From a virus (taxonomy: Duplodnaviria; Heunggongvirae; Uroviricota; Caudoviricetes): a stretch of 21,351 nt of DNA. The position numbers were made by a program, and so were the translations under genes. The stretch covers positions 1-21,351 of IMG/VR virus record IMGVR_UViG_2861043448_000004. The stretch is one strand, 5' to 3'. The notes beneath the pieces are model-generated. The model did not search any database and was not told the DNA's origin. It saw only the letters and a program-made list of their open reading frames with translations. Positions 542-21,351 of the stretch are shown in pieces (positions within the stretch are counted from its first letter, which is position 1; every line of letters begins with the position of its first letter).

Positions 542-1579
542 TTAACGCTTATCCGCCACCAGTTTGAGCGCGTGTTCCAGCACATTAATGTCTGCACCCG
601 CTTTATGGGCATTTTCACTTAAATAACGCCGCCACTGCCGCGCGCCAGGAATACCCTGGAACAAGCCCAACATATGCCGGGTAATATGGCCGAGATACGT
701 CCCCTGGCTGAGTTCACGCTCAATGTACGGATACATGGCGCGCACTACCGCCACTGGATCGGCATCGGTATCCGAGGAACCAAAGATCTCCCGGTCTACC
801 GCCGCCAGAATACCCGGATTCTGATACGCCTCGCGCCCGACCATCACGCCATCCATATGTTGCAGGTGTGCTTTGGCCTCTTCCAGCGACTTGATACCAC
901 CGTTAATCGACATTGTCAGATGCGGAAAGTCACGCTTCAGTTGATACACACGCGGATAATCGAGCGGCGGGATTTCACGGTTTTCTTTCGGGCTTAACCC
1001 CGAAAGCCAGGCTTTACGTGCGTGGATGATAAACATCTCACACTCGCCTTTGCCGGAAACGGTGTTGATGAAATCGCAGAGAAATTCATAGCTGTCCTGG
1101 TCATCGATGCCAATACGCGTTTTCACCGTCACTGGAATCGACACCACATCGCGCATCGCTTTCACGCAGTCGGCAACCAGCTGCGCATTACCCATCAGAC
1201 ACGCACCAAACATGCCGTTCTGCACCCGGTCAGACGGGCAGCCGACATTCAGGTTGATCTCATCATATCCACGCGCTTCTGCCAGCTTCGCACACTGTGC
1301 CAGCGCCGCCGGATCGCTACCGCCGAGTTGCAACGCTACCGGATGTTCTTCTTCACTGTACGCCAGGTAATCACCTTTACCGTGAATAATCGCCCCTGTG
1401 GTCACCATTTCGGTATACAGCAACGTATTGCGGGAAAGCAGACGCAAGAAATAGCGGCAATGTCTGTCCGTCCAGTCGAGCATAGGAGCAATGCTAAACC
1501 GAGAACTCCAGTAAGCGCCAGTTTTTTCAGGCATCACGCTGGTTTGATTAGTTTTCTGTGTTTCAGGATTATCGTGCAT
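542..1579 (-). CDS. dusA: tRNA-dihydrouridine synthase A
   Basis: 345-aa translation is collinear with E. coli DusA over the whole length (TIM-barrel Dus motifs such as [14 protein letters not shown] and [23 protein letters not shown]). The first ~30 residues differ from my recollection of the K-12 sequence, as expected if the prophage supplies a replacement 5' end. Confidence 0.9.
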
Positions 1580-1667: not shown

Positions 1668-2765
1668 ATGGCGTACTATAACATAGAGAAACGACTAAAA
1701 TCCGATGGCACACCACGCTATCGCTGTAATGTGATTATCAAAGAAAAAGGTGTTATCACTTACAGGGAAAGCAAAACATTCCCTAAACATGCTCATGCCA
1801 AAACATGGGGCGCACAGAAAGTGATGGAATTAGATCTATATGGCATTCCATCATCAAATGCTGTTGACGGACTTACAGTCCGTGACTTACTACACAAATA
1901 TTTAAATGACCCAAATGCCGGAGGTAAAGCAGGCCGTACTAAAAGATATGTGCTGGAACTGCTTATGGATAGTGACATCTCCGCGATCAAACTATCTGAA
2001 CTGACAGAAAATGACGTAATTGAACATTGCAGGCTAAGAAACAACGCTGGTGCAGGCCCAGCAACAGTCAGCCACGATGTTAGTTATCTTGGCAGTGTTC
2101 TGGATGCGGCAAAACCTGTATACGGAATCAATTACACATCAAACCCGGCGAAAAGCGCTCGTCCATATCTACTTAAACTCGGTTTGATTGGTAAATCAAA
2201 CCGTCGTAATCGTAGACCAGCATCTGATGAACTGAACATGCTCATTGAAGGCCTTCAACAACGATCTACTCATAAATGCTCAAAAATTCCGTTCGTTGAT
2301 ATCCTCAAATTTTCTGTGTGGTCCTGTATGCGAATCGGAGAAGTATGCCGGTTACGATGGGAAGATCTCGACCAGGAACAAAAATCTATACTAGTAAGAG
2401 ACAGGAAAGATCCACGTAAAAAGGAAGGCAACCATATGAAAGTTGCCTTGCTTGGGGAAGCCTGGGATATCGTCCAGCGACAACCCAAAAAATCAGAATT
2501 CATTTTTCCATATAACAGCACTTCTGTTACCGCAGGATTTCAGAGGGTAAGAAGCAAATTAGGTATTAAAGATCTGAGATACCATGATTTGCGTAGAGAA
2601 GGGGCAAGTCGCTTATTTGAGGCTGGTTTTAGTATTGAGGAAGTCGCTCAGGTTACAGGGCATCGTTCATTAAACGTGCTATGGCAGGTATATACCGAAC
2701 TGTATCCGAAATCTTTACATAATCGTTTTGAAGAACTCCAAAGGAGCAGAAATAAGACCTCTTGA
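1668..2765 (+). CDS. int: Phage integrase, tyrosine recombinase (dusA-associated family)
   Basis: 365-aa ORF starting 88 bp upstream of and divergent from the dusA start; C-terminal catalytic region HDLRREGASRLFEAGFSIEEVAQVTGHRSLNVLWQVY carries the tyrosine recombinase H-x-x-R ... H ... Y signature; GAGG Shine-Dalgarno 7 nt upstream of the ATG. Confidence 0.9.
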   Translation: MAYYNIEKRLKSDGTPRYRCNVIIKEKGVITYRESKTFPKHAHAKTWGAQKVMELDLYGIPSSNAVDGLTVRDLLHKYLNDPNAGGKAGRTKRYVLELLMDSDISAIKLSELTENDVIEHCRLRNNAGAGPATVSHDVSYLGSVLDAAKPVYGINYTSNPAKSARPYLLKLGLIGKSNRRNRRPASDELNMLIEGLQQRSTHKCSKIPFVDILKFSVWSCMRIGEVCRLRWEDLDQEQKSILVRDRKDPRKKEGNHMKVALLGEAWDIVQRQPKKSEFIFPYNSTSVTAGFQRVRSKLGIKDLRYHDLRREGASRLFEAGFSIEEVAQVTGHRSLNVLWQVYTELYPKSLHNRFEELQRSRNKTS

Positions 2766-3296: not shown

Positions 3297-3848
3297 ATGC
3301 ATGACAATATTTGGTTTACATATAAAGCACGTATCCAAGCGCACCATCGACTAGAATGGCTTGAAAAACACTCTCAATTTATCCTCGTTTGGTATGCTAT
3401 ATTGAGTGCGGTACTTTCAATTGTAACGTTGCGATTTCCAAAGGTTCTAGGAGATAATACAGATGTCGTTGCGGCGATACTTTCAGTGGCTCTACTGGGT
3501 ATTTCTCTGATCGTATCTAACCTAGATTTTCGTGGTCGAGCAATAGCCATGAGAAGGAATTATATTGCACTACAGCGACTCTATTTTGACATTACCACCA
3601 GTCAACAGTTATCTCTTGAACAGAAAGAAAAATATTTTAATTTGCTCAATGAGGTTGAGAATCACCGTGACATAGATGATAAAATTTCAAGGGTAACTCA
3701 AGTTGGACTTAAGACGAGGATCCCCACACAAAAAGAAAAAATAATTGTTATTTTATGGATATTACTTCGAATATTTATTACTGCCGCACTTTATATACTC
3801 CCATTAATATATCTTTGGATTGACTATGACTGCAAGCAGAATTTTTAA
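3297..3848 (+). CDS. Predicted multi-pass inner-membrane protein, partner of the reverse transcriptase
   Basis: 183-aa ORF with AGGA Shine-Dalgarno 6 nt upstream; hydrophobic helices FILVWYAILSAVLSIVTL, VVAAILSVALLGISLIVSNL and C-terminal IIVILWILLRIFITAALYILPLIYLWI; AT-rich codon usage unlike flanking genes; 3' end overlaps the RT start by 23 nt. Confidence 0.7.
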   Translation: MHDNIWFTYKARIQAHHRLEWLEKHSQFILVWYAILSAVLSIVTLRFPKVLGDNTDVVAAILSVALLGISLIVSNLDFRGRAIAMRRNYIALQRLYFDITTSQQLSLEQKEKYFNLLNEVENHRDIDDKISRVTQVGLKTRIPTQKEKIIVILWILLRIFITAALYILPLIYLWIDYDCKQNF

Positions 3849-5633: not shown

Positions 5634-8477
5634 TTATTTAGAGGCAAGCGCCGCCTCAATTGCAGATAATCTTTGTTTTAATTCTGCGTTTTCTTCTTCC
5701 AGCGCGGTAACGCGATCATCTGTTTCACGGGCGACCTGAACAAGTAAGCCCGTCACGGCGGCGTAGTCAACATTCAGATAACGTGTTTCTTCACGTAATT
5801 CATTGCCGTCAACCGTTGGTCCCTGCAACTCTTTACCGTAATGAGTGAATGAGCCTACCGCTTCCGGTATTGCCTCCATTGCTTCCTGTGCAATAACACC
5901 AGCGTAAGGCAGTCCGTTTTCCTTAAGTGTGTAGGTGTACCCGTTCATTTTACGGATAGCTTCGGTTGCGTCACTGATAATCTGAATATTGTCTTTCAGC
6001 TCGCGGTCTGATAACTGATTCAGTGTTGTACAGTTAATAGCACCGTTTACATCAAACAGCTGACCTGACGATGTTTTTTGAGCATAAAACAGATACGCGG
6101 CAGACGTTCCAACCTCAAAAACGTTTTGTCGATCACCTGAACCCCACACCTTGACAGCAAATGGTAGTTCTGTATTACCTAAGTTCTGTAAAACAAAACG
6201 ATTGCCAGTCCCTGTTTGTTTTGTAAGAGTTAAATCAACAGTTGAGTTAACCTCATCCTTGTTGATAGTGAGCGCCTGCGCTTTAGCACCGTTAACAGCA
6301 CCTGTTTTGAGTTGAACCGCGCCGTCATTACCATTTAGCAGTATCTCAGCTCCGCTAAAGAAATTTTTTAGCGACAGCATCTTACTTACGCCGACTGATG
6401 AACCCAACGCCCACGCGAGAGAATTACCGGTGCTATCAAACCCACGTACAAAGCAATCCATTTTGCTATAGTCTGACGTGCTTCCAAGGACATCAATCCG
6501 CCCTCCGCCAGATTTTATCGGGTTAGATGTGGTTAATGACCTGACAGCAAGAGCGGTAGATGAATTGAGATCGTCTACTGTTAGTAATTTCTTCCATTCC
6601 TGCGTCGTTCCATTTTCAATTGTTCTTCCCCAAAAACCGGAATTGCGGCCTCCGAACTGCACAGCATAATTTTTACTAAATTGAACATGAATGCCGCCAA
6701 GAACCATAGAGCCTGCCGGGCCGTTTGTACTGCCTGCAATTGGTCTAAATTTGTCGACGTTATCAGTATGCTGAGCGTTCCAGTCTCGTCCTGTTTTTGT
6801 AAGCAGTCCTAATGTCGTGTCGAGCGCTTCGGTTAAAGTAAGGTTTTTAAATTTAACTGCGCTACTTTCGCCAAGACTTAAGTTGTTTCGCGCATCTTCT
6901 ACTGTTGTCGCACCTGTACCTCCTTGCCCAACAGCTAATGGCAACCAGCCAGTGCCATTATGACAACCCCACAAACCAGATTTGGAAACCTGTAAGCGTG
7001 GTGCGCCTGAAGAATACGTAGAATATACGTAAGTTGTTTCTTTTCCCTCTTCAACCCTTTCTGTTGATACATCTCTCTTCCATTCAGACCAGGTACCGCT
7101 ACCTCCTTCATATATTCGTCTATAAGTAATTCCCGGATTATTATAAGGGTGGTACACCTGAACGCAGGAAGAAGCAGTGTTGGCTCTCGTTTGGAGCACT
7201 ATTAAAGCGCCCGCCAGACCGATTGGGTAATTTAATTCTTCTGTTGCGTAAGCGCTCGTTGGTTGTTGATAGAAACCAGAATATTCACCGGTAAGGGTGT
7301 TTAGGTCAGTATTAGCAAGGCCAGCTTTTTGCTCATACATTACCCGCAAGTTCGCACGTGCTTGCTCGATAGTTCTTCCACCAGTACCACCCTGGGCTAA
7401 ACCTAACGGAGACCATTGTCCAGAAGAAGAATCATAAACCCCCCAACTCCCGTTAGTATGGATTTCAAAGAAACGATCACCAGTTGGACCATACATACGA
7501 GTTGTTGATTCATTTTGACCAAAGCGGCTTAATTCATCTCTGCGGGTATGACGTATCCATTGCGGGCCAGAACTTTGGCTGTAAATGTACGAATACAATG
7601 ATTTTGTATCTGAACCAACAAATAGACCGGAATATCTTTTTGTTGACACTTCTGATCTAACTATATAACCAGAAATAAGATTATCCCCGGCACTAGACGC
7701 TACTGATGGATAACCTTTCGCTGAGATGTAAATCCTGATAAATCCAATATAACCTGATGGCTCAACAGAGATATCAGTGCAGGTCATAGCAACTTCACCA
7801 AGACCAATATTGTTACCAACAACGGATTGTGCCTGGTTGCGATAATTAAGTGCGTCCGCTGCAGATTTCGCCGCGTTTGTTTCACTGGATTTAGCATTAG
7901 TTTCGCTGCTCTTTGCTGCTGCCTCGCTATTTTTCGCGTTGGTTTCTGATTTTTTGGCTGCTGTCGCGGAGTTTGCCGATGCAGTTTGTGAGGCCGCTGC
8001 CGCCTGTGCGCTGTTATCCGCATTCGTCTCAGACGTTTTTGCGGCCTTCGCGGAATTTCCTGCCGCCGTTGCCGAAGAGGCTGCACTACTGGCGCTCGAG
8101 GCTGCGCTCGTTTCTGATGATTTCGCTGCCTCTTTTGAGGCCGCCGCATCCCGGGCTGAGGTGGCAGCTTCTGACGCTTTCGTGGTCGCGGTGGATGCAG
8201 AAGTGGCTGCAGATTTTTGTGACGCTGCAGCATTCGTTTCTGACGTTTTCGCCGCACCGGCACTGGTAGCCGCCGCGCTTTTTGAGGACTCTGCAGCGGC
8301 AGCACTTTTTGATGCTTCAGTAGCCTTTGTTGATGCCGTTCCTGCGCTGGAAGACGCTGACTGAGCCGACGTCGCGGCCTGCCCGGCTGATGTGCTGGCT
8401 GCACGTGCTGAGCCTGCAGCATCAGTCGCATGGGTTCCCAGAGCACCACGCTGGCCGACTGCTCCGCACGGGTGCAT
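5634..8477 (-). CDS. stf: Side tail fibre protein lacking its N-terminal region, with C-terminal intramolecular chaperone (peptidase S74-like) domain
   Basis: Ala/Ser-rich repeats (SARAASTSAGQAATSAQ..., KTSETNA repeats) align with the part of lambda Stf that starts around residue 150 (from memory); two GQGGTG...ARxNL collar repeats; C-terminal LSDRELKDNIQ...VDYAAVTGLLVQ with ENAELKQRL coiled coil is typical of the self-cleaving chaperone domain. The first ATG directly follows the in-frame TGA of the upstream terminase fragment. Confidence 0.75.
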   Translation of the reverse strand: MHPCGAVGQRGALGTHATDAAGSARAASTSAGQAATSAQSASSSAGTASTKATEASKSAAAAESSKSAAATSAGAAKTSETNAAASQKSAATSASTATTKASEAATSARDAAASKEAAKSSETSAASSASSAASSATAAGNSAKAAKTSETNADNSAQAAAASQTASANSATAAKKSETNAKNSEAAAKSSETNAKSSETNAAKSAADALNYRNQAQSVVGNNIGLGEVAMTCTDISVEPSGYIGFIRIYISAKGYPSVASSAGDNLISGYIVRSEVSTKRYSGLFVGSDTKSLYSYIYSQSSGPQWIRHTRRDELSRFGQNESTTRMYGPTGDRFFEIHTNGSWGVYDSSSGQWSPLGLAQGGTGGRTIEQARANLRVMYEQKAGLANTDLNTLTGEYSGFYQQPTSAYATEELNYPIGLAGALIVLQTRANTASSCVQVYHPYNNPGITYRRIYEGGSGTWSEWKRDVSTERVEEGKETTYVYSTYSSGAPRLQVSKSGLWGCHNGTGWLPLAVGQGGTGATTVEDARNNLSLGESSAVKFKNLTLTEALDTTLGLLTKTGRDWNAQHTDNVDKFRPIAGSTNGPAGSMVLGGIHVQFSKNYAVQFGGRNSGFWGRTIENGTTQEWKKLLTVDDLNSSTALAVRSLTTSNPIKSGGGRIDVLGSTSDYSKMDCFVRGFDSTGNSLAWALGSSVGVSKMLSLKNFFSGAEILLNGNDGAVQLKTGAVNGAKAQALTINKDEVNSTVDLTLTKQTGTGNRFVLQNLGNTELPFAVKVWGSGDRQNVFEVGTSAAYLFYAQKTSSGQLFDVNGAINCTTLNQLSDRELKDNIQIISDATEAIRKMNGYTYTLKENGLPYAGVIAQEAMEAIPEAVGSFTHYGKELQGPTVDGNELREETRYLNVDYAAVTGLLVQVARETDDRVTALEEENAELKQRLSAIEAALASK

Positions 8478-9890
8478 TCATTCAGTGTTTCCTGCCGGAT
8501 AGCTGGCCGGATCAATTCGCTGGCTCTCCCCGTCGCTGTCACCGCGCAATGACTGCGTGATGTTGTAACGATCAATAATCCAGCGTTCGCCACGGCTGCC
8601 ATAGCCCGTTACCTGAACCACAAAACGGCGATGACGTCCCGCCTGCACATCCACTGTCGCCACAAGGAAATTAACGCCATCCGGCACACTGCGGGAAGGA
8701 ACTGGCTCTGCCCGCTGCTCAAGCAATTCACTTTTTCGTTGCTCCATGCTGGCGCGGGGAAGATAAGGTAATCCCCAGTCGGTATTGATAACCGTCTTGA
8801 GTGTCTCTTCACTTCCGGTTGTCTCGTATTCCTGTTCTGCAGTAAGCAGTTTGTAAACGAGTTGCGAGAGTGTCTGATAAGCAGCTGCCGGCCCCTCCAT
8901 CCAGAATGACGCAATACGTGAACGCCGGGGATCACCATAACGACTGCCATCTGCATTGATGGATTCACCATCCCGTAACCAGACCCCACGTCCGTTCAGC
9001 TCGCGTTTTTGTTCAGGCAAAATCCGTCCTGAACAGGAAGGACACTGAATATAAGCCGCCTCACTTGCCAGCACAGGATCGGCAATATCACGGAAACCAG
9101 CAACCACATCGCCGCAGGGCTGAAAATACTCACCACAGTGTGGACAGGGCCAGTACCAGCGACGGCGATCGCCACGGTTATAGAGCGACAGGATCCCCGT
9201 GGTTGGTGGAGCCTCATGCGGTGAAGTCCGTCGCCATTTCACATCCTTCACATCCCTGCCGGGGGAACTCTCCACCAGCGTCATACCACTGGACATAAAT
9301 GTGGTGGTACGTTTTGAGGCAAGAGAGAAGGCATCCCCCTCACCATCAATATCTTCCGGAAAACGGTCATAATCCGTCAGCGCCACGCATTTATAATCTG
9401 ATGAAGACATGATATTGACTGACGGCCAGCCGATTTTCAGGTAGTTGCCAGCAAGGAATGTTCTGTCATAAACGTTGTTGTCATTTTTGTTCGGACTCAG
9501 GCGACTGACCACTTCCGGGCTGACGCGAAACGTTCTGGCGAGTCGTTTTTTGGAGTGTTCGCGGGCTTTTTCCTCCGTCATCTGAATGATCAGCATATCA
9601 GCAGGATCGCAAATCACGTTGTAAATCACCCAGCCGTCAATCAGGCCGATAGTCTTGCCGGTTCGTGCCGGGCCAACAAATATCACTGCGTCGTATTCAC
9701 GCGAGGCCAGGCAGTTCATAGGCTCAATAACATACGGTGCCACCAGCGGATCCCACGGGACTGAGTTCCCTGCCCCCATGGGCACCCGCATATACTGAGC
9801 AACGGCATCAGCAACCCGCATTCGTCTCGGTGCGCGAAGGATATAACCTGAATCGGTTCGTGCTGCCTTTGCGGTTTCCTGATTCAGCAT
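8478..9890 (-). pseudogene. Terminase large subunit (GpA family), C-terminally truncated
   Basis: 470 aa against about 640 in lambda gpA; contains GPARTGKT Walker-A-like motif, zinc-finger-like WPCPHCGEYFQ ... CPSCSG and WIIDRYNI resembling lambda gpA ACPHCGEE and SWLIDRQII; start overlaps the small-subunit stop (TAATG) with GGAGGAG Shine-Dalgarno; ORF ends abruptly at TGA directly abutting stf. Confidence 0.75.
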
Positions 9891-10381
9891 TACTCCTCCT
9901 GCTGTAATTCCTCCTCATCATCCGCACCTGCTTCGGTCACCCGCAGGGCTATCTGATCGCGCAGATCATCAATAATGGACTGAACACGGCTCACAGCAGC
10001 AGGCTGCAGGCCGCAGTCACGTTCCAGAATATCCGGTAATGTCTCCAGCACCTGCACGACCGCTTTTGCCCAGATGGCAAACTCCCGTCTGACATCACTG
10101 GCCGGAATGAGTTGTGCCGTTTCCTGTTCGAACTTAAGACGCTCACGTTCAGACTGATACCAGGCTTTGCGTTCATGTGGATCCATTTCGCCCTCAGCAA
10201 CCGGCGGTGGTAACCCCATAAATTCAGTCAGAATATCGGTCAACCGGTATAGCTTGAGTTTGTCATGTCCACCAGCGGGACGAATGTTTTTCAGTCTTGC
10301 CACGACAGTCTGGCGGTGCAGACCAGATAAAGCCGCCAGTTGATTAATATTCAGCACCAGGTTTTTCAACTCATGATCCAT
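9890..10381 (-). CDS. Terminase small subunit (Nu1-like, N-terminal HTH)
   Basis: 163 aa; N-terminus MDHELKNLVLNINQLAALSGLHRQTVVARLKNIRPAGG is a winged-HTH resembling lambda Nu1; GGAGG Shine-Dalgarno 4-5 nt upstream; acidic C-terminus; translationally coupled to the large subunit. Confidence 0.65.
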   Translation of the reverse strand: MDHELKNLVLNINQLAALSGLHRQTVVARLKNIRPAGGHDKLKLYRLTDILTEFMGLPPPVAEGEMDPHERKAWYQSERERLKFEQETAQLIPASDVRREFAIWAKAVVQVLETLPDILERDCGLQPAAVSRVQSIIDDLRDQIALRVTEAGADDEEELQQEE

Positions 10382-10555
10382 ATTTCCTCCGGAGAGCTTT
10401 AAACATGCATCGTGCGAACAACTTTAAGAAAACGCGTTCGATGTCGAACAAAAAACACGCAATTCGACATACAAAAAACAAATAATCATTAATAATCAAT
10501 AAGATGTAAAGATGATGGTGGCCGATAAAAATGCAAAAACTAGCCTTTTTCCGCG

Positions 10556-10567
10556 ACGCTCCCGCCC
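10556..10567 (-). other. Candidate cosN cohesive-end site
   Basis: Minus strand reads ACGGGGCGGGAGCGTCGCGG, closely resembling lambda ACG-GGGCGGCGACCT-CGCGG (lambda cos recalled from memory); lies about 180 bp upstream of the terminase small-subunit start, as in lambda. Confidence 0.4.
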
Positions 10568-10998
10568 CGTGGCAGGCCACCCCACCGGGAGGACCCGTCA
10601 GCCTGACAGCTCTGACGAACGTCTGATACAACGCCTTGCATGAATGGCATCGGGATAATCCAGAAAGGCATAGCATCGTGCCCACAAGAATCTGTGTAAG
10701 TGTCCTGTTTCTTCCACCCCCGCACAGGACTGGCGAGCATGAGGGACAAACCCGCGAACCATAAACGCGGTAAAAACCCGGTGTGCATCGTTTTTGATTA
10801 TTCCCGCACACTCTCGCAGAAGGAGTTCCCCGTCGGGCTACGGTCTCTGTTAATACGGGAATACGGCGACGATACAGCGCATGATGTGTCAGGCTTGAAT
10901 ACCTTTATCCGTTAAAAGGGATATCAGTTAAATTATCCCGTGTAGGGTATAAGCCATTGTCAAAGACACTCGACATGGAATGGGCTTTGTAATAGCAA

Positions 10999-13641: not shown

Positions 13642-14460
13642 TCACCCCCTGAATCCTGCCGGGATCTGGCTGTAGTCCACGTTGTCGTAACTGGCTTTGA
13701 AGTACGGGTCCTCGCGTCTGGCTGCAGATACCGCAGGAACTTCCCAGGATTCTTCGAAATGACGATCCGGACCAAAGAACGTGACAGCCTGTTTCACAAA
13801 TTGTGTGCCGCTGTTACCCATCGCAGATACCCAGCCCGCGTAGCGTTTCACACCTTCCAGCATGGTTTCGGGGTTTACCCCCTCATTCAAACGGGCTTTC
13901 CAGGCTTTGAAGGCTGCAGATTTTGAATTGCCACCAGCACGTTTGGGATATACCAGCCATGCCTGCTCAAACTCCGGAGAGTATTCCGGTCGGTTTGAAC
14001 GAACTCGCACGGACTCATCAACTGATGCACCAACAGCTATTGGTTCATTGACTGGTTCTTTGACTGGTTCAAAAGAGTGACTGGTTCTGGGTGAATCTCC
14101 TGCACTACCCCCTGGTGCAACTCCTGCACTACCTGGTGAATTTGCTGCACCAGATAGTGAATTATTTGCACTACCCCCTAGTGAATCTCCTGCACCATCC
14201 AGATGAAGGAGATAGATATTACTTGAGTTACCTTTTTCACCTTTCCGGGTGACTTTTTTTACCAGCCCGGACTCACAAAGGGCCGCAATATGATTCATCA
14301 CAGAACGTTTGCTAATCTCGCACTGGTCAGCAATATGCTGGTAGCTGGGCCAGCACTCACCCTGATCGCTGGCATTATCAGCCAGCTTGATCAGAACCAG
14401 TTTTCGCAATGGATTACCCACTCGAATTTTCATCGCTTTAACCATCAGCTCCATACTCAT
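13642..14460 (-). CDS. Phage replication initiation protein (N-terminal HTH, repeat linker, C-terminal domain)
   Basis: 272 aa; N-terminal LRKLVLIKLADNASDQGECWPSYQHIADQCEISKRSVMNHIAALCESGLVKK is a replication-initiator-type winged HTH; low-complexity Gly/Ser/Ala/Pro linker encoded by DNA direct repeats; gene order matches the lambda O position. Confidence 0.65.
   Translation of the reverse strand: MSMELMVKAMKIRVGNPLRKLVLIKLADNASDQGECWPSYQHIADQCEISKRSVMNHIAALCESGLVKKVTRKGEKGNSSNIYLLHLDGAGDSLGGSANNSLSGAANSPGSAGVAPGGSAGDSPRTSHSFEPVKEPVNEPIAVGASVDESVRVRSNRPEYSPEFEQAWLVYPKRAGGNSKSAAFKAWKARLNEGVNPETMLEGVKRYAGWVSAMGNSGTQFVKQAVTFFGPDRHFEESWEVPAVSAARREDPYFKASYDNVDYSQIPAGFRG
14049..14200. repeat. Direct-repeat arrays inside the replication gene (candidate origin iterons)
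   Basis: Three copies of TGACTGGTTC (14049..14086) then about five imperfect ~22-bp units of GGTGAATCTCCTGCACTACCCCCT type (14090..14200). Confidence 0.5.
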
Positions 14461-14693
14461 GCTGCACCTCCGAGATGCTTCATGTTTTTTCCGGAGCGAA
14501 AGGCTATAAGCGGCATACTGACGCGGTAATTACGGCCCAGCGGTTCACAAATCACCTTCTGGCATTCACGGTCAACCAGGCTAACACGTAGAACATGCCC
14601 TGCAGGTGTGGTGTACCACTGCCCAACTGTAGGAATTGATGTTTTTTTACGCTGAAGCAAACGGCAAATATTGAGGATCAACGGATTAAGCAT
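14457..14693 (-). CDS. Hypothetical small phage protein (78 aa)
   Basis: ORF with ATGA-type overlaps to both neighbours in the early-right operon; no recognised family. Confidence 0.45.
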   Translation of the reverse strand: MLNPLILNICRLLQRKKTSIPTVGQWYTTPAGHVLRVSLVDRECQKVICEPLGRNYRVSMPLIAFRSGKNMKHLGGAA

Positions 14694-15522
14694 GACGATG
14701 CCCTCCGCTGATATTCAGGAGACGGTGAATATGAAAATTAGCCTTATCCGCCAGACGAATACGTTCAGCCTGCAAGTTAAGAAGGGTTTCTACCAGAACT
14801 TGATGCGCCTGCGGATCCGAAAGAGTTACCTTGCGCAGAGCACGTAGTGCAGTTGTTACATAACTGAGTTTATGTAAGTCTTCATCATTCAGACGAGTGA
14901 GGGCTGGGACAGTAGCCATGATGGCAGCCTCCGATAACAGTGAATTACCTTCACCACCGGAAACGCCAATTTCGCTGGTGGTGAACTGAACGGGGTTGGC
15001 GTAACCGGCGTTATCGGAAACCGGCGCACCTTTCGGTGCCCCCGTCCAGCCCACCATAATTTGGGTGTGCACAGACGCAGACGATAAAAAAGACGCTGGC
15101 GCGTCATATATCGCCGATAACATTTCCAGGACGCCAATCCCGGCACCCGCTTTATAAGGTGCCTGAACAGTGTAACGTCCCGGAATGGCAGAATCAATGT
15201 GCTGGTGGTCCTTCACACTCAACAAAATCACGCCTGAATTTCCACAAAGGACTAAAGCACTCATGCGGGTAGTCTTTGCGAAGATAGATAACGCGCTGTG
15301 TTTCTGGCTCCCAACGAATAACATGGACATAAAGCCCTCTTCCGTCACGAAACCAGCGGTTAAGTTCCTGCACAACTCGCCCCCCACAGTCAGGTAAAGT
15401 TCTCTGTGGTTACTTACAGCCAGGTGATTTGGTAATCTGCATTCATGCCGTAACAACAGGTGTTCAGCGACACTGACCACCAGCTGTTGCGACAAACGGT
15501 TATTTGCCGTTAAACTGTTCAT
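14686..15522 (-). CDS. Hypothetical phage protein (278 aa), possibly YdaU-like
   Basis: Long intact ORF, translationally coupled to the upstream gene; family assignment tentative and from memory only. Confidence 0.5.
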   Translation of the reverse strand: MNSLTANNRLSQQLVVSVAEHLLLRHECRLPNHLAVSNHRELYLTVGGELCRNLTAGFVTEEGFMSMLFVGSQKHSALSIFAKTTRMSALVLCGNSGVILLSVKDHQHIDSAIPGRYTVQAPYKAGAGIGVLEMLSAIYDAPASFLSSASVHTQIMVGWTGAPKGAPVSDNAGYANPVQFTTSEIGVSGGEGNSLLSEAAIMATVPALTRLNDEDLHKLSYVTTALRALRKVTLSDPQAHQVLVETLLNLQAERIRLADKANFHIHRLLNISGGHRHA

Positions 15523-16404: not shown

Positions 16405-17079
16405 ATGAAAACAGTCCATGACATCCGGCGGTCTAACGCCAGAAAACTGAGAGATGGTGTTGGCGGGAATTCTTCCTTTGCCACCATGATTGATCGCGAG
16501 CCAACCCAGACCAGCAGGTTTATGGGAGATGGTGCAACTAAAAATATCGGTGACAGCATGGCACGGCACATCGAAAAATGTTTCGACCTGCCTGTCGGAT
16601 GGCTTGATCAAGAACACCAGACAACGAACATCACAAAAAAACCTGACGTTTCAATCACTAACAAACAAATAACGTTAGTCCCTGTCATATCATGGGTACA
16701 GGCCGGAGCATGGAAAGAAGTTGGCTATTCTGAGGTTGATTTGAGCACAGCAGAAACTTATCCCTGCCCTGTACCCTGTGGCGAAATGACTTATATCTTG
16801 CGGGTGATTGGTGATTCAATGATTGATGAGTACCGCCCGGGAGACATGATTTTTGTTGATCCTGAAGTCCCTGCCTGCCACGGTGACGACGTTATTGCAT
16901 TGATGCACGATACAGGCGAAACCACCTTCAAGCGGTTGATAGAAGATGGAACACAGCGTTACCTCAAAGCATTAAACCCAAACTGGCCTGAACCTTACAT
17001 TAAGATCAACGGTAATTGCTCTATAATTGGTACAGTGATTTTCTCAGGAAAACCAAGAAGATACAAAATAAAGGCCTAA
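16405..17079 (+). CDS. CI-like prophage repressor with LexA-type S24 autopeptidase domain
   Basis: 224 aa; N-terminal HTH; Ala-Gly cleavage site in WVQAGAWKE; catalytic Ser in VIGDSMIDEY and Lys in TTFKRLIEDG. Confidence 0.85.
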   Translation: MKTVHDIRRSNARKLRDGVGGNSSFATMIDREPTQTSRFMGDGATKNIGDSMARHIEKCFDLPVGWLDQEHQTTNITKKPDVSITNKQITLVPVISWVQAGAWKEVGYSEVDLSTAETYPCPVPCGEMTYILRVIGDSMIDEYRPGDMIFVDPEVPACHGDDVIALMHDTGETTFKRLIEDGTQRYLKALNPNWPEPYIKINGNCSIIGTVIFSGKPRRYKIKA

Positions 17080-18173: not shown

Positions 18174-18998
18174 ATGTCTCAGAACTTAGACGCAACCGCA
18201 ATTAATCAAATCCATGCCCTTATTTCTGCTCAGGGTGTTAATGAAATTATCAGTAAGATTGGTGCCGATGCTGTGGCATTGCCTGAGAATTTCCGCATTC
18301 ATGATCTGGAAAAATTTAATTTAAATCGCTTCCGTTTCCGTGGTGCGCTTTCCACTGCCAGCATCGATGACTTTACCCGTTATTCTAAAGTTCTTGCAGA
18401 TGAAGGCACCCGCTGCTTTATCGATGCCGATAATATGCGTGCCGTCAGTGTGCTTAACCTGGGTACTATTGATGAACCAGGTCACGCAGATAACACCGCC
18501 ACTCTCAAACTGAAAAAGACAGCACCGTTCTCTGCTCTGTTGTCTGTTAACGGCGAGCGTAACTCCCAGAAGTCACTGGCAGAATGGATTGAAGACTGGG
18601 CCGACTACCTTGTGGGCTTTGATGCTAATGGTGACGCCATTCAGGCAACCAAAGCGGCTGCGGCGATCCGTAAAATCACAATTGAAGCGAACCAGACCGC
18701 TGATTTTGAAGATAATGACTTCAGCGGCAAACGCTCCCTGATGGAGTCTGTCGAAGCGAAGACCAAAGACATTATGCCAGTGGCATTTGAATTTAAATGC
18801 GTTCCGTTTGAAGGTCTGAAAGAACGTCCGTTTAAATTACGCCTCAGCATTATCACTGGCGATCGTCCTGTACTGGTTCTGCGCATTATTCAGCTGGAAG
18901 CGGTACAGGAAGAAATGGCTAACGAATTTCGTGATCTGCTTGTTGAGAAATTCAAAGACAGCAAAGTAGAAACCTTTATTGGTACTTTCACCGCCTGA
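18174..18998 (+). CDS. Hypothetical phage protein (274 aa), YfdQ-like (DUF2303-type)
   Basis: Intact [25 protein letters not shown]...; length and sequence match my recollection of E. coli CPS-53 YfdQ; function unknown. Confidence 0.65.
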
Positions 18999-19172
18999 TT
19001 TCATTACTGCAAATGCCCCTGCGGGGGCGTTTACGGAAGCGATAATTTTAACTATTGCCGCCCCTATAAAGAACCATTAAACAATAACGTGACGAAGCTA
19101 TTGATAGTAAATGAAGCACTTGCAAAATAATTGCATTGCGTATATATACACATGTGTTGTATTACAGCGATA

Positions 19173-19967
19173 ATGGTAAAGCAAATGATTAACTCTGAAG
19201 CAATTGAGCAACTAATGTGGCTATGGTCCTTATTTGACATTAAATTCTTATCTATTCTTGCCGCTGCCTTCACTATATATTTTGGCGTGCAAAAAATATC
19301 AAAAAAGGTGACAGTGTCGTATTCAGCAAATGCAAGTAGAATATATGACATGCATATATCAACCATAATCCTGAATAATAAAAGAGATAATGCAATTGCT
19401 ATATCTTCAATCAATATGGAGGTTGAAGGTAAAGGGATACTACAAGTTATTAAATTTGACTCCCCTCTTCTTTTAAAGAACTATGATTCTTTAAAAGTTG
19501 AACCACCAAAATTTAGCAGCCTTTATAATAATGATGGCGTAGTTAAGTTAGATATTTATGATAAGTTTCATTTTTATATAATCACGACATCTGGAGATGA
19601 AATTAAATGTATTTCTGAAAATAAATATGTGGCACCAAACATGGAAAACAAAATAGCTACAGACATAAGAAAATTTAATGGCATTGTCTTAACAAACAGA
19701 ATGTCTTATATTTTTTTCTATGCAAATGACAACAGAGAGAAATACTGCATAATAGATGTTTCATTGTTCATAAATGGTGACAACCCATTTCATTTTAATT
19801 TTTTAAAAGAAGATGAATTAAGAGATTTTTCTAGCATCCTTATTAGTTACGGATATCACCAACAGTTTAAAAGTTATGCATTGTTTAAAATAGACAACCA
19901 TCTTGCTCCTTCTTTGGTTTTAAATAAATCAATGATAGAAAATAATATTATTGAAATGAATAAGTAA
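19173..19967 (+). CDS. AT-rich membrane-anchored protein of unknown function (cargo gene)
   Basis: Start uncertain (ATG at 19173 or 19185; track ORF begins at a TTG at 19131); one N-terminal hydrophobic helix LMWLWSLFDIKFLSILAAAFTIYFG then about 230 soluble residues rich in N/K/I/F/Y; strongly AT-biased codons relative to neighbours. Confidence 0.55.
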   Translation: MVKQMINSEAIEQLMWLWSLFDIKFLSILAAAFTIYFGVQKISKKVTVSYSANASRIYDMHISTIILNNKRDNAIAISSINMEVEGKGILQVIKFDSPLLLKNYDSLKVEPPKFSSLYNNDGVVKLDIYDKFHFYIITTSGDEIKCISENKYVAPNMENKIATDIRKFNGIVLTNRMSYIFFYANDNREKYCIIDVSLFINGDNPFHFNFLKEDELRDFSSILISYGYHQQFKSYALFKIDNHLAPSLVLNKSMIENNIIEMNK

Positions 19968-20003
19968 CTCACCGGGTGCAGCCGGTTATGATGGAGAAAT
20001 GAT

Positions 20004-20273
20004 ATGAATACCTTGTTTTTACTGATGGCTGAATTCAATACCCCAAACATTGAACTCTCAGCAGTTAGTCAAAAATACTTTGGTATGAGTCCAGCCACAG
20101 CAGAAGCAAAAGCAAACGCTTGTAAGTTGCCTGTACCTACATATCGCATCGGTACATCACAAAAAGCAAAACGCTGCATCAACATTCAGGATCTTGCGGA
20201 ATATATTGACAAAAGACGGGAAGAAGGGCGAGCTGAGTGGGAAAAAGTCAGAACGGAAAAAAAATATAACTAA
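20004..20273 (+). CDS. PrtN-family (pyocin activator-like) DNA-binding protein
   Basis: 89 aa; N-terminus MNTLFLLMAEFNTPNIELSAVSQKYFGMS and LPVPTYRIG ... DLAEYIDKRREE match the PrtN family pattern as I recall it. Confidence 0.55.
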   Translation: MNTLFLLMAEFNTPNIELSAVSQKYFGMSPATAEAKANACKLPVPTYRIGTSQKAKRCINIQDLAEYIDKRREEGRAEWEKVRTEKKYN

Positions 20274-20287
20274 ACTAAAACTATGGA

Positions 20288-20315
20288 TAACCCGTATATG
20301 TACGGGTTATTTTTC
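20288..20315 (+). terminator. Candidate intrinsic terminator between convergent genes
   Basis: AACCCGTAtatgTACGGGTT hairpin followed by ATTTTTC; overlaps the stop codon of the minus-strand gene. Confidence 0.45.
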
Positions 20316-20855
20316 TTTATCACTATCTTTTCTTGATTTGAACAATCCACTAACAACGAAACCAACCAAACCAACAATACTAATTGTACTTGTACCTAGT
20401 AATGCAACGATCGCTTCAACTGGAGCCTTTCCTTCATGTGCAATAAGAAACGATGTAAACATTGCGACAACGAATAAGCACCAACACGACATAAACCAAA
20501 CCGTGAATGATGCCATTTTTGTCCGGAGCTCATTGTCTATTTCTTTACCAGTTGCGTCAGCTATCTTATCCCGTACTTGTGATTTGAGCATATCAAGCTG
20601 AGCTTGAAGACTGTCCATTCTGTTCTGCTGCATAAACTCATGCAATGCACCAGTATTAGAACCAAACTCTTCTTCCTCCAGAATAGCCTTATTTTCTGAA
20701 GAAGAATCATCATCGCGTTCATGATTAGACGGCTCAAATGCGGATTCAAAAGCCTGCTCTTGACTGTCAGTAGAGTTTAAGGATGCTTCAGAGCGACCAT
20801 TTTCAACACCTGCGGCCGCTCCGATCAGTTTATAGATATCTGAATTATGAGACAT
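20307..20855 (-). CDS. Small membrane protein with acidic N-terminal region; candidate toxin partner of the Panacea protein
   Basis: 182 aa; N-terminal half acidic and polar with predicted coiled coil (LQAQLDMLKSQVRDKIADATGKEIDNELRTKM); C-terminal two hydrophobic helices (FTVWFMSCWCLFVVAMFTSFLIA and AIVALLGTSTISIVGLVGFVVSGLF); starts 22 bp downstream of the Panacea gene on the same strand. Confidence 0.55.
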   Translation of the reverse strand: MSHNSDIYKLIGAAAGVENGRSEASLNSTDSQEQAFESAFEPSNHERDDDSSSENKAILEEEEFGSNTGALHEFMQQNRMDSLQAQLDMLKSQVRDKIADATGKEIDNELRTKMASFTVWFMSCWCLFVVAMFTSFLIAHEGKAPVEAIVALLGTSTISIVGLVGFVVSGLFKSRKDSDKEK

Positions 20856-20877: not shown

Positions 20878-21351
20878 TCAGAGGCCCTGACATTGCTGTC
20901 GGTTATTCAATAAATCATGATAATAAGCCTTGATCGCATCATTTGAGATGATCGACGAGCCAATACCATTATAAGCTTGTGACCAAGGCGTACCTGGCAT
21001 ATGAGTTAGAGTTGATAACTCAATTCCATTTTTCGAGCCGTAAAACTTATAAACAGCCCCGATAATGCTCTCTGCTTGCGGATCCATAGTAACGATGCCA
21101 CCAAAAGGAGCTACTGCTACATTCGTAACAGGTTTATTCCCATAGTCTTTGAAAGCATCGTACATTCCAGGAATAACTGGACCGTACTTCCACGCGGAGA
21201 CACATTCATTGAGCAAAGGCTTACCTGTTAATGCTAAATAGTAACCATGGGCAATATAAGTAAGCTTCTGCAGTTGCATGTGGGTCAGAGGATTATGATG
21301 TTGGTTTCCCAACGTTATGAATTTATTGGCTATTTGTACCGGACTGTACAT
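20878..21351 (-). CDS. Panacea-domain (DUF4065, SocA-like) protein; candidate antitoxin
   Basis: 157 aa; MQLQKLTYIAHGYYLALTGKPLLNECVSAWKYGPVIPGMYDAFKDYG matches the Panacea core pattern (KLQKLLYyaqG ... pLf ... AW.yGPV ... Y). Start codon is the last three bases of the window, so the upstream region is unseen. Confidence 0.65.
   Translation of the reverse strand: MYSPVQIANKFITLGNQHHNPLTHMQLQKLTYIAHGYYLALTGKPLLNECVSAWKYGPVIPGMYDAFKDYGNKPVTNVAVAPFGGIVTMDPQAESIIGAVYKFYGSKNGIELSTLTHMPGTPWSQAYNGIGSSIISNDAIKAYYHDLLNNRQQCQGL

Follow-up and report, generated by a model that had tools for sequence, protein, structure and literature searches.

A persistently AT-rich, predicted membrane-anchored moron in the excisionase-proximal slot of a defective lambdoid prophage: a possible phage-exclusion protein

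Introduction

What does a strongly AT-rich gene of no recognised family do at the end of a decayed prophage? The question is raised by the IMG/VR virus record IMGVR_UViG_2861043448_000004 (Caudoviricetes), of which positions 1 to 21,351, the whole stretch analysed here and referred to as the window, hold a prophage of E. coli. Near the right end, between yfdQ and a PrtN-family excisionase-like gene, lies the gene in question, referred to as the cargo gene, which a first-pass annotation made from the letters alone had described as membrane-anchored cargo of unknown function, in the region downstream of cI where exclusion or abortive-infection genes are common in lambdoid phages. The cargo gene is a moron in the excisionase-proximal variable slot of a dusA-integrated, defective lambdoid prophage, and it is probably defensive. 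From its genomic contexts, its product is proposed here to be a protein of a new family that acts alone, anchored in the inner membrane, in phage exclusion or abortive infection, a role to which we give about an even chance. What the analysis establishes is that the gene is genuine, stand-alone and mobile, that it belongs to a broad family, and that its composition and architecture are as described below. The protein was previously known, without function, from PHROG 14996 and RefSeq, and what is new is the breadth of the family, the architecture, the predicted topology and the genomic contexts.

The cargo gene and its slot

The open frame spans positions 19131-19967 of the plus strand (278 codons counted from a TTG). 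Its start was assigned to the ATG at 19185 (MINSEAIEQL...), giving a protein of 260 residues, because homologues from Citrobacter, Klebsiella and other bacteria, PHROG 14996 and RefSeq all agree on it. The equivalent ATG is the start in most of the 11 homologue clusters, with M1 and N3 conserved in at least 90%; PHROG 14996 (function unknown) matches with an E-value of 3e-176 and 585 bits (residues 5-264 of a 264-residue version against profile positions 1-260 of 260); and RefSeq WP_000610754.1, a "hypothetical protein" of E. coli APEC O78 and strain 035152, begins at the corresponding ATG. The gene annotated at first pass is therefore real, while its start and its length of about 265 residues needed correction. 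A minus-strand open reading frame at 19064-19414 was treated as spurious in view of its TTG start and its overlap with the conserved cargo gene.

Despite the AT-rich DNA, the length of the frame is not due to chance, since the probability of meeting no stop over 260 codons is about 9e-11 (stop probability 0.085 per codon) and the longest open frame among 2000 shuffles had 149 codons, compared with the 278 observed. The GC content of the gene is 0.287 (0.264 at third codon positions) versus 0.461 for yfdQ, 0.400 for the PrtN-like gene and 0.460 for the whole window, and it forms the lowest-GC stretch of 783 nt anywhere in the window (mean of such stretches 0.461, standard deviation 0.069). Both the identity of these flanking genes, which Pfam recognises (Table 1), and the marked compositional difference from them agree with the first-pass annotation, as does the reported richness of the protein in N, K, I, F and Y (I 33, N 24, S 24, L 22, K 22, F 18, D 16, Y 14). 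Alleles of 92% identity differ by 33-35 substitutions, 10-12 of them synonymous and 22-23 non-synonymous, with the frame kept and no frameshift; at a ratio of non-synonymous to synonymous rates (dN/dS) of 0.45-0.55, the cargo gene is, judged from these alleles, under constraint.

The slot occupied by the gene has a hairpin at either boundary. On the left, the stretch with the terminator-like hairpin after yfdQ, labelled "terminator" in phage Ayreon, recurs in 45 phage records and in 2229 E. coli records, which mostly do without the cargo gene; on the right stands a conserved short hairpin, ACCGGGTGCAGCCGGT. In phages SfV and mEp460 the same interval is filled by a nucleotidase and other small genes. 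Since the same flanks enclose other genes elsewhere, the cargo gene is one interchangeable item in a defined slot, and the earlier label "cargo" is justified by this exchange and by the 98 of 5426 complete E. coli genomes that carry the gene, set against the 2229 records with the left flank. Two hallmarks of a phage moron, namely presence or absence between conserved flanks and a distinct base composition, are found here. The prophage itself is defective, because the genes for portal, minor tail protein L, lysozyme and RusA are truncated: all four are annotated as partial in the matching RefSeq locus (L046; window 5634-10811). Annotated records of E. coli APEC O78 and strain 035152 contain identical DNA, a dusA fragment marks the right attachment site (attR) in the matching RefSeq records, and the cargo frame is intact in two differently decayed prophage remnants.

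In five lineages, whose excisionase (xis) genes belong to three unrelated families, the hairpin ACCGGGTGCAGCCGGT lies 3′ of the stop codon of the homologue, and in one of these lineages (L036) its stem shows a compensatory change. Phage mEp460, which is without the cargo gene, has the hairpin ahead of its PrtN-like gene as well, and for this reason the hairpin was rejected as belonging to the cargo cassette. More than 120 IMG/VR viral contigs contain the exact 16-mer, usually 1.3-2.3 kb from the contig end, and the open reading frames upstream of it form 23 clusters, of which about 15 are plausible distinct gene families and some are spurious short frames. The hairpin is weak, folding at only -8 kcal/mol without a T-run, belongs to the xis leader, and looks like a module-boundary or xis-leader element. 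Elsewhere it is found at about 8787-8801 (L007), 10786-10801 (L036/L037), 10832-10847 (L039) and 7025-7040 (L004).

The position downstream of cI, given at first pass, holds in part. The cargo gene is on the same side and co-oriented with cI, but 2.1 kb away from it, behind yfdP, yfdQ and a hairpin of -18.5 kcal/mol. In five lambdoid lineages the homologue lies 2-5 kb from an S24-type cI repressor gene and is co-oriented with it; what stays constant next to the cargo gene is the att-proximal excisionase gene. A sigma-70-like promoter candidate ahead of the gene (Table 1) is identical in the 92% allele.

Protein architecture and predicted topology

Hydropathy analysis gave a sole hydrophobic segment at about residues 10-34, with no second one in the protein, and the AlphaFold2 model (12-sequence alignment; mean predicted local distance difference test score, pLDDT, 83) places a helix at residues 4-39, followed by an immunoglobulin (Ig)-like beta-sandwich (42-141) and a C-terminal alpha/beta domain (156-260). 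The layout of one N-terminal transmembrane helix and a large soluble domain, as first described, is thus recovered by both approaches. The linker at residues 145-152 was poorly predicted, and the C-terminal domain modelled alone (34 sequences) reached a pLDDT of 92. Neither a signal peptide nor a lipobox was found in the protein.

The orientation of the helix was assessed from the charges around it in 125 family members. Lysine and arginine in the 15 residues after the helix outnumber those on the N-terminal side in 100 of these, with on average 2.5 positive and 0.4 negative charges on the C-terminal side and 1.5 negative charges on the N-terminal side. K37, K40 and K41 flank the helix on its C-terminal side, and K37 is lysine or arginine in 124 of the 125. 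By the positive-inside rule, this bias predicts that the short acidic N-tail is outside and that both domains of the body are cytoplasmic. In addition, one variant (P0031) is extended ahead of the family helix by a further, positively charged signal-anchor and about 90 residues, a two-helix layout that only the N-out/C-in orientation of the family helix fits. The soluble body is therefore predicted to be cytoplasmic and the N-tail periplasmic.

Only K37, N65, P94, S111, C142 and G194 are nearly invariant across the family, with strong conservation of K/R67, D68, K98, E/D101, N165, Y179 and N205, and no recognisable constellation of catalytic residues was seen among these positions. As a catalytic-looking motif is absent, a binding role is likelier than an enzymatic one, and the pattern of conservation suggests that the cargo protein most likely acts by binding.

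The remote-homology and structure-prediction searches proposed with the original annotation gave models but no informative homologue, and its statement that no family could be recognised stands. The best Pfam hit, Ig_TMEM131L_3, scored 16 bits against a cut-off of 28, no NCBIfam model matched, and a Pfam scan of the 125 members found no family in more than two of them. PDB sequences searched with the 125-member profile gave no match (best E 0.085), and a Foldseek search of BFVD no structural match at E ≤ 1e-3. The layout of an N-terminal helix plus an Ig-like sandwich is shared with archaeal type IV pilins and FlaF/FlaG. A type IV pilin-like protein was nonetheless rejected, as the N-terminus MINSEAIEQLMWLWSLFDIK is without the basic leader or the G/A cleavage site of a class III signal peptide and the charge bias is the opposite. 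An i-spanin or holin-type lysis protein was likewise rejected, the gene lying outside the lysis cassette and the product being beta-rich, not coiled-coil.

Family size and distribution

A word-indexed search of 5.8 billion proteins returned 11 close clusters, from E. coli, Citrobacter and Klebsiella, and when 1.84 billion representatives were scanned in full with HMMER, 220 members came out at E ≤ 1e-3, reaching Pseudomonas and Acinetobacter. These 220 representatives are clusters at 50% identity and extend down to about 20% identity; nearly all have 235-280 residues and the same architecture. The family is present in 24 IMG/VR contigs, and its close-family pattern in 3 of 185,579 species-representative genomes, whereas tblastn of the 260-residue protein against 50,697 GenBank phage genomes gave no match at E ≤ 1e-3. 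WP_000610754.1 was not mentioned in the literature text searched; neither this accession nor the N-terminal peptide occurs in the text-form supplements of Vassallo 2022 and Rousset 2022 (PMC9122126), and a preprint on defence hotspots holds nothing on this slot.

At every locus examined, from enterobacterial to Pseudomonas-type, the GC content of the homologue is below that of its surroundings. The gap is 15-20 points at enterobacterial loci (0.26-0.33 versus 0.43-0.53), across homologues of 30-100% identity, and 1-10 points at Pseudomonas-type loci (0.46-0.49 versus 0.47-0.59). A low GC content is therefore a lasting property of the family and not solely a sign of recent arrival, which suggests that AT-richness is maintained, perhaps in connection with xenogeneic silencing. 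In one Pseudomonas-type locus, a gene for the H-NS-like protein MvaT lies directly downstream of the homologue (L015, 8846-9214).

These data make it very improbable that the gene is a functionless or selfish passenger, a decaying AT-rich foreign remnant that merely hitch-hikes. Its location in a defective prophage, its rarity in E. coli and among the species-representative genomes, and a fairly high dN/dS of about 0.5 would suit such a passenger; however, that ratio is below 1 over 33-35 substitutions without a frameshift, full length, frame and architecture have been kept over 220 clusters, and family-wide conserved residues and confident AlphaFold models are not what decay would leave.

Genomic contexts of the homologues

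The 16 E. coli-type loci always show the order YfdQ, cargo gene, PrtN-like gene, one of several two-gene minus-strand cassettes and prophage end. In the lambdoid loci of Citrobacter and in L036/37 and L039, the cargo gene is followed by excisionase and integrase genes of differing families at the end of the element. A homologue of 30% identity (L045) sits in a P2-like viral contig between the genes for portal protein gpQ and replication protein gpA, a locus shown by Rousset et al. 2022 (PMC9122126) to be an anti-phage hotspot. Further homologues adjoin a type II-A retron in Pantoea (reverse transcriptase E 2e-106, NDT E 9e-59), a HEPN_LA2681/DUF4062/MvaT group, a Metallophos protein with a faint NACHT match together with HsdR, and, at other loci, HNH nucleases. 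Others are the terminal gene of integrase mini-islands of about 4.5 kb, directly after a serine recombinase gene, or are carried on small plasmids of Acinetobacter. The Pseudomonas-type serine recombinases (195-208 residues, Resolvase plus HTH_7) lie at 7237-7824 in L017, 7125-7751 in L053 and 7038-7649 in L055, and their adjacency could reflect no more than shared mobility, or else a switch that inverts to control expression.

When the neighbours at 23 loci were compared all against all, no partner proved to be conserved between lineages; only immunity-region genes, such as the S24 repressor gene, recur. A conserved partner gene was accordingly rejected, the neighbours of 477 residues in Citrobacter, 427 in Acinetobacter and 361 at the P2 locus being mutually unrelated and without informative domains.

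The Klebsiella locus differs from these: the homologue stands between the replication and late genes, after an MT-A70 methyltransferase gene. The Klebsiella prophage (L009-L012; homologue 45% identical) encodes an Acb2/Tad1-hairpin protein at about 14352-14612, among the head genes. Placement of this kind would suit an early phage gene that serves lytic growth, as a membrane counter-defence or host-takeover protein that, for example, neutralises a defence effector or alters transport or division. For such a gene one would also cite the position of the Klebsiella homologue inside an early-right operon of a phage with an Acb2/Tad1-type gene, the DNA methylase beside the homologue of L044, and the co-orientation of the cargo gene with the early-left genes yfdP-yfdQ-xis. 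Anti-defence genes are common in the variable slots of early operons. A role in lytic growth is nevertheless unlikely. It makes little sense for the homologues that no phage carries, those of chromosomal islets, integrase mini-islands and small plasmids; the gene is intact in prophages no longer able to grow lytically; and the family is absent from the deposited phage genomes searched. Moreover, 260 residues with a membrane anchor are atypical of known anti-defence proteins.

The Pantoea locus raises a different possibility, since the homologue there lies about 0.9 kb from an orphan gene for a CdiA-CT with an RNase-A domain. The protein could be a lysogenic-conversion or fitness factor unrelated to phages, either conferring immunity to a bacteriocin, a contact-dependent inhibition (CDI) toxin or a type VI secretion toxin, or modulating stress tolerance or the physiology of the envelope. 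Retention of a membrane-anchored accessory protein in cryptic prophages is in line with this, and AT-rich prophage cargo often consists of host-phenotype factors. This explanation is quite unlikely, given that no toxin partner is conserved across loci, that the domain is predicted to be cytoplasmic without a signal peptide or lipobox, unlike most envelope immunity proteins, and that the P2 hotspot and retron neighbourhoods favour phage conflict. CdiI-type immunity in Pantoea was rejected specifically: the homologue is divergent from the CdiA-CT gene, which has a small downstream open reading frame of its own.

Comparison with known exclusion systems and proposed role

An anti-phage role fits the cargo gene best because it is stand-alone, persistently AT-rich, mobile, kept in dead prophages and repeatedly located in neighbourhoods of known or probable defence, and because its product is predicted to be membrane-anchored and looks non-enzymatic. 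A precedent in design is PdpSau, a 278-residue S. aureus prophage protein that is anchored by an N-terminal membrane helix, has its body in the cytoplasm and aborts Kayvirus infection with membrane depolarisation (PMC10127798); its gene, ORF016 of phage 53, sits between the endolysin and integrase genes. Like PdpSau/AbiP, the cargo protein is the product of a single gene of about 260-280 codons, an att-proximal prophage accessory, and the PdpSau/AbiP architecture of one N-terminal helix, a cytoplasmic body and stand-alone cargo is predicted for it. The domains differ, in that the C-terminal domain of PdpSau, cytoplasmic and positively charged, is described with an OB-fold-like region (PMC10127798) and the cargo protein has a beta-sandwich and an alpha/beta domain.

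P22 SieA (PMC10883804) and, by kind, HK97 gp15 and lactococcal Sie2009 are superinfection-exclusion proteins, prophage-borne, non-enzymatic and of the inner membrane, features that are also predicted for the cargo protein, which differs from the SieA type in that its bulk is predicted to be cytoplasmic. With the rexAB/sieB-type cargo of lambda it shares a non-essential nature, a place on the cI side of the immunity region and co-orientation with cI. Unlike rexAB, it is a single gene that neither adjoins cI nor is obviously co-transcribed with it. Sie2009 genes lie between repressor and integrase. As for the old/tin cargo of P2, a family member occupies that very gpQ-gpA locus, whereas the window copy resides in a lambdoid, not a P2-like, prophage.

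Briefly, in the mechanism proposed, the one N-terminal helix would tether the protein to the inner membrane with its acidic N-tail facing the periplasm, and the Ig-like sandwich and the novel alpha/beta domain would abut that membrane from the cytoplasmic side. Expression would be driven by the gene's own promoter, and the cytoplasmic module of the protein may detect, at the membrane, some part of a foreign phage that is entering or developing. Genome entry would then be left incomplete, in a SieA-like block, or the membrane would be perturbed and the infection aborted, in the manner of PdpSau/AbiP, and the lysogen would be protected. The chance given to an anti-phage role, about a half for the two mechanisms jointly, is divided about evenly between the entry block and the membrane-perturbing abortive route.

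Several observations weigh against this proposal. Homology to known defence or exclusion proteins was not found: no family of PADLOC-DB v2.0.0, which dates from 2023 and whose scope excludes later defence systems, matched at E ≤ 1; the tblastn search of the 50,697 phage records (E ≤ 1e-3), assumed to include the respective phages, revealed no similarity to SieA/SieB, lambda RexAB/SieB, HK97 gp15 or T4 Imm/Sp; and homology to PdpSau was rejected after hhalign of the 125-sequence profile against ORF016 of phage 53 gave a probability of 0.3% and an E-value of 0.19, AbiP lying outside this comparison. The anchor helix is only moderately hydrophobic, with D18 and K20 inside it in the E. coli protein, and promoter-like sites in the region are no more numerous than expected from shuffling. 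Recognised defence genes occur within about 5 kb in about one third of some 17 independent contexts, a qualitative count without statistical control. Several contexts are ordinary early-gene regions (MT-A70/DNA methylases, ParB-like, antirepressor), which weakens a defence role because counter-defence and host-takeover genes live there too. Lastly, the Klebsiella homologue forms part of an operon (gaps of 78 and 2 nt), a placement that suggests lytic-cycle expression there.

The host prophage

The features of the window are collected in Table 1. The matching RefSeq record holds about 2.2 kb more than the window inside the matched span. The APEC O78 version is further reduced, with the segment from cI to attR intact; in it the reverse transcriptase gene is split and has an IS2 upstream. 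The integrase and excisionase-like genes stand at opposite ends of the prophage, with the phage attachment site (attP) between them in the circular form; KplE1/CPS-53 presumably has the same arrangement, with intS and torI.

Table 1. Positions of the cargo gene, its parts and the surrounding features in the window
Feature	Position	Strand	Remarks
Cargo coding sequence	19185..19967	+	Open reading frame; start by homologue alignment, PHROG 14996 match and RefSeq; 260 residues plus stop
Hydrophobic helix codons, predicted membrane anchor	19212..19286	+	About residues 10-34; Kyte-Doolittle windows 1.4-1.7; AlphaFold helix
Ig-like beta-sandwich domain codons	19308..19607	+	Residues 42-141
C-terminal alpha/beta domain codons	19650..19964	+	Residues 156-260; without informative structural neighbour
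Terminator-like hairpin after yfdQ	19011..19032	+	Left slot boundary; RNA fold -18.5 kcal/mol, z -3.2
Sigma-70-like promoter candidate, TTGATA-16-CAAAAT	19101..19128	+	Consensus scan; in 186-nt AT-rich spacer
Conserved short hairpin ACCGGGTGCAGCCGGT	19971..19986	+	Right slot boundary; just before the Shine-Dalgarno of the excisionase-like gene
dusA	542-1579	-	Window is the dusA end of a prophage-bearing E. coli chromosome
Tyrosine integrase	1668-2765		After dusA
DinI gene			After integrase
SLATT protein	3297-3848	+	PADLOC "RTasSLATT" E 1.5e-56; GC 0.36; overlaps reverse transcriptase
Reverse transcriptase, 458 residues	3820-5196	+	Full-length PADLOC RT_UG17 match, E 1.2e-158; GC 0.33
Tail, terminase, lysis and replication genes	after the reverse transcriptase	-	
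C4 antisense RNA	14974-15061	-	Rfam 82.8 bits; above gathering score
isrK Hfq-binding RNA	15086-15162	-	Rfam 63.7 bits; above gathering score
Cro-like/cI-like pair	cI 16405-17079 (strand given for cI)	+	
yfdP, then yfdQ	yfdQ 18174-18998	+	DUF2303/YfdQ, Pfam E 2.4e-92; upstream neighbour in all E. coli-type loci
PrtN-family excisionase-like gene	20004-20273	+	PyocinActivator Pfam E 2.8e-23; PHROG 1300 "excisionase" E 7.5e-40; invariant downstream neighbour
182-residue protein	20307-20855	-	C-terminal hydrophobic region; PHROG 13343 (unknown); downstream of Panacea gene
Panacea/SocA-domain protein	20878-21351	-	Pfam E 5.9e-18

Beside the integrase gene, the SLATT and reverse transcriptase genes form a candidate two-gene defence module of the DRT (defence-associated reverse transcriptase) class. 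At the other end, the Panacea protein and its 182-residue partner are probably a PanA-type antitoxin with a membrane toxin. Sister prophages swap this minus-strand pair for others (139/190, 178/235 and 156/193 residues), and since two-gene cassettes are exchanged there, the stretch from the PrtN-like gene to attR is a second variable slot. In the circularised prophage, the cargo gene would come within about 6 kb of both the Panacea module and the SLATT-UG17 reverse transcriptase pair. The matches to C4 and isrK lie inside the region of a 278-residue minus-strand open reading frame (ash-family in RefSeq), as in P1/P7-type immunity systems.

Conclusions

The cargo gene is a prophage moron and is probably defensive; to a specialist, such a gene at such a place is unsurprising. 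A wider reading, held tentatively and placed a little below an even chance, is that the cargo gene is the E. coli member of an undescribed, fairly widespread family of at least 220 clusters that comprises single-gene anti-phage sensor-effectors tethered to the inner membrane, non-enzymatic and with a C-terminal domain without a structural relative in the PDB, which shuttle among the xis slot, the P2 old/tin hotspot, islands with an integrase plus a serine recombinase, and plasmids, and which are AT-rich possibly for H-NS/MvaT silencing of a potentially toxic protein. If the gene had no phage phenotype, it would simply join the other conserved hypothetical morons and matter only locally. More cargo could in addition be sought in the slot that the yfdQ terminator and the pre-excisionase hairpin enclose. 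If the exclusion role is true, the protein would add a new family and a new C-terminal fold to the few one-gene, membrane-anchored prophage defences, and its gene would be a compact test object of 783 bp in clinical and avian-pathogenic E. coli lineages.

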